Assembly: GCF_003334255.1 (NCBI RefSeq)
Contig: NZ_QOWU01000042.1
Source: Escherichia coli
GTDB taxonomy: Bacteria > Pseudomonadota > Gammaproteobacteria > Enterobacterales > Enterobacteriaceae
Direction: 5' to 3' (one strand)
DNA length: 47,091 nt
Shown: positions 45,206-46,030 of the stretch, one piece after another
How the letters are laid out: the number at the start of each line of letters is the position of its first letter
How positions within the stretch are numbered: position 1 is the first letter of the stretch
Program-made: the position numbers and the translations under genes
Notes under the pieces: model-generated
Databases searched by the model: none
What the model saw: only the letters and a program-made list of their open reading frames with translations
What the model was told of the DNA's origin: nothing

Positions 45206-46030
45206 ATGATAAAGCCATTTTCTGTGAGGTATGGTCATGTTGACGTTAGAGAGCATGTCCAGCTGAATGATCTTAATTCTGATACACGCATGGCATTGTG
45301 GAATTGCTTATATCTTTTCCTTTGGACTAACAATCGTCAAACTGCTACAGCAACAAAATGTGCGCAGTCTGTGTGGATATATTATCTAAATCAACCTGCG
45401 GATAATATTCCTCGTTATGAAAGTGGATACAAAAGTGATAAGACGTTGCTGACTGCTATCCGAGATTATATATATGGGGAAGCATGGTATTTGGTATATG
45501 ATTTAATTGAGTTCATCATTGAGAGAACTAATTCATATATTAATCTATCGAAGCATCTCAATTCCATCTTTAAAAAGCATGGCGTTGGTTATACCATAAT
45601 AAATGGTTGTATTACTCCTATTTCAAATGATAACGAAATTGAAAGTGTTCAGAACGCAGTTGATAATGGCACTGATTCATCGCGTAGCCATTTCGAAAGG
45701 GCGTTACAACTAATGACGGATAGAGAGCAGCCAGACTACAGAAACTCGATTAAAGAGTCTATCTCTGCAATTGAATCTTTATGCAGGAAAATCACGGGCA
45801 ATGATAAAGGAACCTTGGGGGCTTGTCTTAAAGCTATAGAGGAAAAAGGATATATACACTCTGCAATGAAAGGCGCTTTTAGTCAGCTCTATGGTTATAC
45901 AAGTGATCAGGGTGGAATACGTCATGCGCTAACAGAAGAAGATGTAAATCCTACCTTAGCTGAAGCTAAATTTATGTTAGTCACTTGCAGTGCGTTCAGT
46001 AATTATCTGTTGTCAAAAATAAGTGATTAA
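45206..46030 (+). CDS. orphan hypothetical protein (274 aa), AT-rich islet gene
   Basis: Clean ORF with a plausible ribosome-binding site (aggggaag, 3 nt upstream of the ATG); markedly AT-rich relative to the backbone. No family assignable by eye. Confidence 0.6.
   Translation: MIKPFSVRYGHVDVREHVQLNDLNSDTRMALWNCLYLFLWTNNRQTATATKCAQSVWIYYLNQPADNIPRYESGYKSDKTLLTAIRDYIYGEAWYLVYDLIEFIIERTNSYINLSKHLNSIFKKHGVGYTIINGCITPISNDNEIESVQNAVDNGTDSSRSHFERALQLMTDREQPDYRNSIKESISAIESLCRKITGNDKGTLGACLKAIEEKGYIHSAMKGAFSQLYGYTSDQGGIRHALTEEDVNPTLAEAKFMLVTCSAFSNYLLSKISD

Follow-up and report, generated by a model that had tools for sequence, protein, structure and literature searches.

A stand-alone AbiJ-NTD4 protein with a predicted HEPN domain in the leuX slot of Escherichia coli

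What does the AT-rich gene beside the tRNA gene leuX of Escherichia coli do, and is it an anti-phage gene? We addressed this question for an open reading frame (ORF) of 274 amino acids at positions 45206-46030 (plus strand) of a 47,091-nucleotide stretch of E. coli DNA (contig NZ_QOWU01000042.1, assembly GCF_003334255.1), hereafter the window. An earlier description of the window made from its letters alone (the sequence-only reading) had guessed from context at a horizontally acquired anti-phage or abortive-infection gene and had assigned it to no family. Our analysis indicates that the ORF probably encodes a stand-alone, two-domain AbiJ-like protein acting as a single-protein abortive-infection system, with an N-terminal domain serving as the sensor and a C-terminal HEPN domain as the RNase effector. 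The gene itself is not new: RefSeq and UniProt already name its product, and PADLOC already lists it as the candidate defence system PDC-S32.

An intact gene of foreign composition

The ORF listing of the window gives one ORF for this interval, starting with ATG. Homologue alignments span residues 1-274, and the start codon is therefore sound. The GC content of the ORF is 0.372, compared with 0.533 for the yjgR-ahr core and 0.506 for the remaining window, and its GC content at third codon positions is 0.31. A stop-free run of 274 codons would arise by chance with a probability of 8e-10 per start position at the composition of the ORF, and of about 8e-5 over the entire window on both strands. 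The ORF is a real, intact and horizontally acquired gene. The sequence-only reading had seen a well-formed ORF with a plausible ribosome-binding site, far more AT-rich than the core, in a tRNA-associated islet beside an insertion sequence (IS), and these points all stand: the Shine-Dalgarno-like AGGGGAAG lies 1 nt from the ATG, and the islet runs from leuX to an IS911-family element (Table 1).

Family membership and spread

The ORF product has a RefSeq entry (WP_000594911.1, "AbiJ-NTD4 domain-containing protein") and a UniProt/AFDB entry (A0ABD7FEY6, 'HEPN AbiJ-N-terminal domain-containing protein'). The PADLOC model PDLC04997 for PDC-S32 aligned protein residues 3-272 to model positions 8-281 of 285 (E=5.6e-104), and a second PDC-S32 model, PDLC04996, matched near full length (E=1e-86). 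PDC-S32 is a single-gene candidate, and no conserved partner gene accompanied the ORF or its homologues across the loci inspected. The Pfam domain AbiJ_NTD4 (PF18863) covered residues 4-153 (model positions 2-151 of 152; E=3.8e-26) and was matched by 35/35 aligned homologues. The NCBIfam model NF046078 (STM4504/CBY_0614) reached 15.8 bits against a cut-off of 150 (E=0.0063), over residues 116-198 only, and a PHROGs search of the ORF returned nothing useful.

With its RefSeq name, these PDC-S32 and PF18863 matches and more than 4,400 homologous clusters, the gene is neither the orphan nor the unassignable protein that it had first appeared to be. The family comprises 4,437 clusters at 90% identity and 4,691 at 50% identity; nearly all members have 265-300 amino acids and the architecture is uniform from end to end. 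Judged by the organism names of the AFDB models, it extends over Proteobacteria, Bacteroidota, Firmicutes, Actinobacteria, Cyanobacteria, Leptospira and one methanogen.

PDC-S32 is one of 145 'phage defence candidate' (PDC) systems of PADLOC, which were derived via 'guilt by embedding' in BREX, DISARM and type I restriction-modification (RM) loci (Payne et al. 2024 preprint, 10.1101/2024.01.29.577857). In the literature searched, AbiJ-NTD4 appeared only in its 2013 definition and in passing mentions in two unrelated papers.

A predicted HEPN domain with a non-canonical active site

The protein was modelled with AlphaFold2 from a 35-sequence alignment (predicted local distance difference test score, pLDDT, 82; predicted template-modelling score, pTM, 0.76). 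In this model the C-terminal domain is all-helical (residues 157-170, 178-197, 204-214, 219-232, 238-241 and 251-273) and forms the four-helix up-down bundle, with helices 2 and 3 separated by an insert, that defines HEPN domains. Its best structural matches were 2hsb, 1ufb and 1wol, which are of the HEPN-T type; Csm6, HEPN toxins and AbiV were matched too, each aligned over about 100-110 residues. By its predicted structure, the C-terminal domain has a HEPN fold.

Conservation was measured over 261 full-length representatives (median identity to the query, 42%). E190, G237, R239 and H240 were invariant (261/261), and H162, D177, N180, S181, K183, E184 and Y229 were conserved in at least 99%, while position 244 was D or E in 92% and position 194 was K or R in 64%. 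The model and this conservation pattern together bear out the earlier impression of a helical C-terminal third with conserved positions. HEPN domains have an acidic residue in helix 2, often within E-x3-[K/R] (PMC3710099), a signature to which E190-x3-R194 corresponds. In the model, E190 and R239-H240 occupy the places expected for a HEPN active site as defined there. The motif that follows from the alignment is R-H-x3-[D/E], an Rx4H motif in which the terminal His is now acidic and an invariant His stands right after the Arg. The elements G-Y-[T/A]-S...R-H, E190, R173 and P176-D177 were retained even in plasmid homologues at 23-25% identity.

Variants of the HEPN-T and AbiV types that have no motif His and use another His have been described (PMC3710099), and AbiV, which has no canonical His, is an active RNase that degrades rRNA (PMC13064643). 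Because such variants exist and AbiV is active, RNase activity of the ORF product is plausible, not guaranteed; we predict that the C-terminal domain is a metal-independent RNase.

A more variable N-terminal domain

The AbiJ_NTD4 domain was modelled as six helices plus a beta-hairpin at residues 129-138. Its mean column conservation was 0.47, compared with 0.65 for the C-terminal domain, and this lower conservation agrees with a protein in which the sensor diversifies and the effector is under constraint. One segment departs from this trend: the N-terminal FSxRxG...Q tail (residues 5-19) was nearly universal and kept even at 23% identity. It was modelled at pLDDT <55 and may be a docking or autoinhibitory peptide.

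Structural searches with the N-terminal domain gave a consistent but weak signal to pyrin domains (PYDs), to the death effector domains (DEDs) of caspase-8, FADD and PEA-15, and to CARDs. We take this model-based resemblance to the death fold as a weak lead and not as a classification. Combinations of death-like and HEPN domains are known in metazoans (PMC8195603), and no link between AbiJ-NTD4 and the death fold was found in the literature searched. A bolder idea, which we regard as quite unlikely, is that AbiJ-NTD4 is death-fold-like (PYD/DED-like), such that phage sensing would lead to homotypic oligomerisation and this would join the HEPN domains into active RNase sites built on the previously undescribed R-H-x3-[D/E] motif. 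If true, a single 274-amino-acid protein would contain an inflammasome-style suicide switch gated by polymerisation.

When the full-length model was compared with AFDB family members, the Foldseek TM-scores were bimodal (about 0.8 and about 0.48), and the lower group included the identical E. coli sequence. The AlphaFold models thus adopt two alternative inter-domain orientations, so that the orientation is not fixed.

The leuX slot in E. coli

The islet is ordered as leuX, a spacer of about 465 bp, the cassette with the ORF, a convergent DUF8453 gene, an IS911-family element split by IS30, and the fec operon; it contains no integrase. The spacer was present in 630 E. coli genomes and was 95-100% identical in about 620 of them, whatever cargo followed. 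In about 154 of the 630, only query positions 1-465 or 1-475 were matched (95-97% identity) before the sequences diverged, and similarity ended at window positions 45137-45147. Cargo-specific sequence thus begins at about 45138-45148. In our preferred reading, the gene arrived as a small mobile cassette consisting of a leader of about 70 nt and the ORF. An Rfam scan of the islet recovered the tRNA only, with no match in the spacer. The spacer might be att-like, regulatory or the end of an island. Searches by tblastn with four island integrases and four recombinases ruled out that the 533-bp leuX spacer represents a decayed integrase or resolvase.

Other strains carry other cargo behind leuX. 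In one (locus L015, 7537-13706) the slot holds a hypothetical gene, a DUF3800 protein that matches PADLOC PDC-M04A (E=1.5e-21), a serine recombinase and a DpdF helicase (E=8e-275); in another (locus L016, 7514-10823) it holds hypothetical genes, a recombinase and a PDC-S60-like protein. The leuX-proximal position is therefore a variable slot that has repeatedly held defence or candidate-defence genes, i.e., a hotspot.

The DNA of the ORF was found in 469/5,426 complete E. coli genomes, always on the chromosome and nearly always in single copy, with a median of one place per genome and at most two. It was at least 99% identical in 468 of the 469 carriers, which came from wide-ranging host and environmental sources, and 462 of the 469 kept at least 80% of the ORF; a few genomes had a copy disrupted by IS1 (H60) or truncated (H89). 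Among the carriers are E. coli C and the type strain ATCC 11775 (both 100% nucleotide identity), Nissle 1917 (99.9%) and S88. Of these, E. coli C is known as a classical permissive host for phages, and Nissle 1917 as a probiotic.

Genomic contexts of homologues outside E. coli

In Klebsiella, Enterobacter, Kosakonia, Pantoea and Trabulsiella, a homologue with 54-61% identity starts 39-44 bp after a tyrosine integrase gene, and a small serine recombinase gene after a gap of 500-640 bp completes an integrase-AbiJ-NTD4-recombinase triad in all five genera. The chromosomal sites of the islands headed by this triad and their downstream cargo vary (loci L002-L009, L018, L019 and L021-L024). A resolvase gene also follows the homologue in Collimonas. 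In the island loci, the interval that separates the gene from the resolvase showed no consistent inverted repeats of the kind that would mark an invertible segment.

Prophages provide another setting, as homologues in Pectobacterium (locus L017, 8001-8849) and Brenneria (locus L027, 8001-8852) lie between the baseplate genes gpV and gpW in the tail operon of P2-like prophages. Their occurrence there in two genera suggests that gpV-gpW is a recurrent site for moron cargo. Four phage or phage-like records also encode a homologue. On plasmids, divergent members stand beside a type II toxin-antitoxin (TA) pair and a TIR protein (Enterococcus faecium) and beside a restriction endonuclease (Pseudomonas aeruginosa), and a member on a Rhizobium plasmid neighbours a Gabija-like pair of AAA-ATPase and UvrD helicase and a RelA/SpoT gene. 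Matches to the HEPN half on E. faecalis plasmids were set aside as an IS-truncated remnant. No antitoxin gene (MNT or small protein) was seen flanking the ORF in the window or its homologues, and no tandem or structured RNA family was found beside the ORF with Rfam.

Several of the triad islands also contain very large genes (about 1,580-1,590 and about 610-620 amino acids) with no precomputed Pfam match, and PADLOC returned no match for the 611-amino-acid protein or for a 978-amino-acid version of the larger one.

Leader, convergent neighbour and IS elements

The final 40 nt or so of the cassette leader in E. coli resemble the leaders of the Klebsiella and Enterobacter cassettes, and the leader may act as a promoter. 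Promoter and terminator scans gave no excess over the expectation from shuffled sequences. A 20-nt inverted repeat (45129-45148 and 45533-45552; 85% complementary, arms 384 nt apart) was also seen, the first arm of which spans the point at which the conserved spacer gives way to the AT-rich cassette; in DNA this rich in AT, the repeat may have arisen by chance. The hairpin between the convergent genes was not called by the terminator scan, as it has no clean T-run, and would plausibly serve as a bidirectional terminator.

The convergent gene encodes a DUF8453 protein, for which PADLOC and Pfam gave no match. Full-length homologues extend about 40 residues further at the N terminus, a segment with a hydrophobic helix that the window copy has lost; the first 12 codons of the window copy are IS-derived. 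The DUF8453 family is small (131 clusters) and carries the label 'lysogenic conversion protein from bacteriophage P2-EC53' in some sources. None of the 15 non-E. coli loci checked had a DUF8453 gene beside the ORF homologue. We conclude that it is a truncated, independent moron and not a partner of the ORF. The IS911 copy that truncates it is itself interrupted by IS30 at about 47015, and positions 47015-47091 are annotated as IS30 in the S88 annotation.

Table 1 Features of the ORF and its surroundings in the window.
Feature	Position	Strand	Evidence or remarks
tRNA-Leu(CAA), leuX, anchor of the variable region	44588-44672	+	ARAGORN; Rfam tRNA, 59.4 bits; RefSeq annotation
Conserved spacer of about 465 bp	44673-45137	.	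GC 0.48; no annotated gene; common to at least three cargo types behind leuX
AT-rich cassette leader	45138-45205	+	-10-like CATAAT at 45168-45173; AGGGGAAG
Shine-Dalgarno-like AGGGGAAG	45197-45204	+	Ends 1 nt upstream of the ATG of the ORF; read from sequence
N-terminal domain AbiJ_NTD4, predicted sensor/regulatory domain	45206-45670	+	Residues 1-155
FSxRxG...Q tail	45218-45262	+	Residues 5-19
C-terminal domain, HEPN-fold helical bundle, predicted RNase effector	45671-46030 (with stop)	+	Residues 156-274
E190-x3-R194, HEPN helix-2 acidic signature E-x3-[K/R]	45773-45787	+	E190 within helix 178-197
R239-H240-A-L-T-E244, non-canonical HEPN Rx4-6H	45920-45937	+	Between helices 219-232 and 251-273
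GC-rich hairpin GAGTGGGT-TAGTT-ACCCACTC	46049-46069	.	8-bp stem; between convergent genes; RNAfold -13.9 kcal/mol
DUF8453/phrog_11802 gene, 5'-truncated	46079-46705	-	phrog_11802, E=7e-86
IS911-family (IS3 group) element truncating the DUF8453 gene	46680-47091	+	Multi-copy matches from 46680, annotated IS911/IS3-family

Likely function and alternatives

From the domain composition, the HEPN fold of the model, the invariant residues at the active-site location and the mobile, defence-rich contexts, we infer RNase activity, sensing by the N-terminal domain and an anti-phage phenotype. The N-terminal domain would respond to a cue from the phage or keep the enzyme inactive, and the HEPN RNase, once released, would cut host and/or phage RNA. 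Such cutting would sacrifice the infected cell and keep the phage from multiplying, i.e., abortive infection. A sensor N-domain combined with a suicidal RNase was proposed for AbiJ-NTD proteins in 2013 (Anantharaman et al. 2013), and classical AbiJ is a validated anti-phage protein (PMC11381338; PMC12184496). Sensor-effector immune proteins are expected to conserve the effector half more strongly than the sensor half, as is the case here, and the cargo of the leuX slot together with the neighbours of the homologues lends contextual support to defence. The guess of a horizontally acquired anti-phage or abortive-infection gene thus gains support from PDC-S32 membership, AbiJ_NTD4, the modelled HEPN fold, the leuX slot and the contexts of the homologues. 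Neither finding named as able to overturn that guess emerged, as no homology to a housekeeping family was detected and the contexts of the homologues were not exclusively non-island.

Several results weigh against an abortive-infection RNase. The canonical Rx4-6H motif is absent: no His occupies positions +5 to +7, and the C-terminal domains of the 261 homologues share no conserved R-x4-6-H. The query gave no Abi_C (PF14355) match even at E<=10, and Abi_C was found in 0/35 full-length homologues and in 0/20 C-domain sequences at E<=0.1. Residues ~156-274 were covered by no Pfam family, HEPN models included, when the whole protein, the 35 homologues or the C-terminal domain alone was scanned. 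A precomputed 'weak' Abi_C match exists for two close homologues (P0013 and P0028), and our own scan of P0013 did not reproduce it and returned no other HEPN model. Sequence links of the C-terminal domain to PDB entries, sought by phmmer and profile searches, were rejected as chance-level matches (MLH3, uS7 and Pol eta). Because the domain has no significant sequence match, the HEPN call rests on the predicted structure (pLDDT 82), and because the inter-domain orientation is not fixed, the models say nothing on autoinhibition. The consensus scan detected no significant plus-strand promoter upstream of the ORF. Some homologues are solitary among housekeeping genes, e.g., between uvrA and a MATE transporter gene in Acinetobacter, and the presence of the gene in the permissive E. 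coli C implies that any activity is narrow or conditional. The authors of the 145 PDC systems themselves call them untested (10.1101/2024.01.29.577857), and the literature searched contained neither a mention of PDC-S32 nor experimental work on the AbiJ-NTD4/PDC-S32 family.

Two alternatives keep the HEPN domain and change its role. The integrase-gene-recombinase triad, conserved in five enterobacterial genera while the remainder of the island varies, could point to a maintenance toxin (addiction or stabilisation): cells that lost or excised the island or prophage would be penalised by the toxicity of the HEPN domain. The resolvase 3' of the Collimonas homologue and the common use of HEPN domains as TA toxins (PMC3710099) agree with this. 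We nevertheless consider such a role unlikely, as no antitoxin-sized partner is conserved nearby, the gene also occurs without a recombinase (in the E. coli islet, in prophage tail operons and between core genes), and the genes from which PADLOC derived the family lay within BREX, DISARM and type I RM loci. A catalytically dead HEPN domain that binds RNA, a nucleotide or a protein, and so works as an adaptor, a regulator or a blocker of a phage protein, also appears improbable to us. The conservation of R239, H240, E190, N180, K183 and E184 at 99-100% across phyla is typical of a catalytic centre, even though the canonical catalytic His of Rx4-6H is replaced by D/E. The best structural matches are of the HEPN-T type, and D for H in several such domains and fusions to MNT have been noted (PMC3710099), but the same work proposes an alternative conserved His for the D-for-H HEPN domains, and here an invariant His stands at +1. 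Lactococcal AbiJ relieved the toxicity of a phage single-strand annealing protein (SSAP), which is compatible with target binding (PMC12184496); against this, AbiV degrades rRNA without the canonical His.

The E. coli locus itself suggests two further explanations. In this E. coli lineage the ORF could be a silent passenger in a decaying islet, intact owing to recent acquisition only: an integrase is missing from the islet, in which the other cargo gene is cut by IS911 and IS911 by IS30, no clear promoter was found, and a few copies are IS1-disrupted or truncated (H60 and H89). Purifying selection cannot be judged from E. coli copies that are at least 99% identical. Given that 462/469 carriers from diverse sources keep at least 80% of the ORF, and that the cassette retains a conserved leader and Shine-Dalgarno sequence, we regard this as very unlikely. 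The ORF and the convergent DUF8453 gene occur in near-identical genome sets (469 and 478 genomes, respectively), as the two genes of one system would; this co-occurrence is explained by clonal inheritance of one islet that is at least 99% identical everywhere. A two-gene system is hardly credible when the DUF8453 gene is IS-truncated (about 40 residues including the hydrophobic helix are gone), is convergent and not co-oriented, is absent at all 15 non-E. coli loci checked, and falls into a distinct, small family described in some sources as P2 lysogenic-conversion proteins.

Significance

As genome annotation the finding is ordinary, the gene being already named and flagged as a defence candidate. 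To this our analysis adds the evidence for a HEPN fold, the R-H-x3-[D/E] and E-x3-[K/R] site, the leuX hotspot, the integrase-adjacent and gpV-gpW positions, the truncation of the neighbour and the weak death-fold resemblance. If activity of this family were demonstrated, one of the 145 candidates of PADLOC would become a validated single-gene defence. It would be a very widespread one (>4,400 clusters in many bacterial phyla and at least one archaeon), and the known HEPN enzymes would gain one whose R-H-x3-[D/E] site is unusual. The presence of the gene in E. coli C, Nissle 1917 and ATCC 11775 could matter for phage work in these strains, in which knock-outs are easy.

Comparison with known systems

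The ORF protein is a member of PDC-S32 as a single gene with a full-length hidden Markov model match, a membership that is silent on mechanism. It resembles the AbiJ-NTD4-HEPN architecture (Anantharaman et al. 2013; prototype CBY_0614) in the PF18863 N-terminal domain, length, collinear layout and C-terminal HEPN fold, and differs from it in that the NCBIfam model of the prototype falls far below its cut-off. The 2013 paper lists AbiJ HEPN domains with Rx4-6H, whereas the family of the ORF has R-H-x3-[D/E]. The HEPN-T domains of the AF0298/TT1696 type and AbiV are likewise without the canonical His, but in them the insert that separates helices 2 and 3 supplies the alternative His, while the invariant His of the ORF product directly follows the Arg. 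They are also usually paired with an MNT or RNA antitoxin, in contrast to the ORF, for which none was seen.

Lactococcal AbiJ (Abi-859), compared by description only, is a single protein of similar size (282 amino acids) with a HEPN-like C-terminal half; the Pfam model Abi_C (PF14355), which the ORF product does not match, was built on its C-terminus, and its host belongs to another phylum. Phages escape it by mutations in SSAP genes, the Sak/Erf SSAPs being its trigger (PMC12184496), and this trigger cannot be assumed for the ORF. Taranis, from a V. cholerae integron cassette (Darracq et al. 2024 preprint), is experimentally active in Vibrio. It is set apart by description through its NTD5-like N-terminal domain and Pfam-recognised Abi_C; like the ORF product it is a single protein that combines an AbiJ-type N-terminal domain with a HEPN C-terminal domain.

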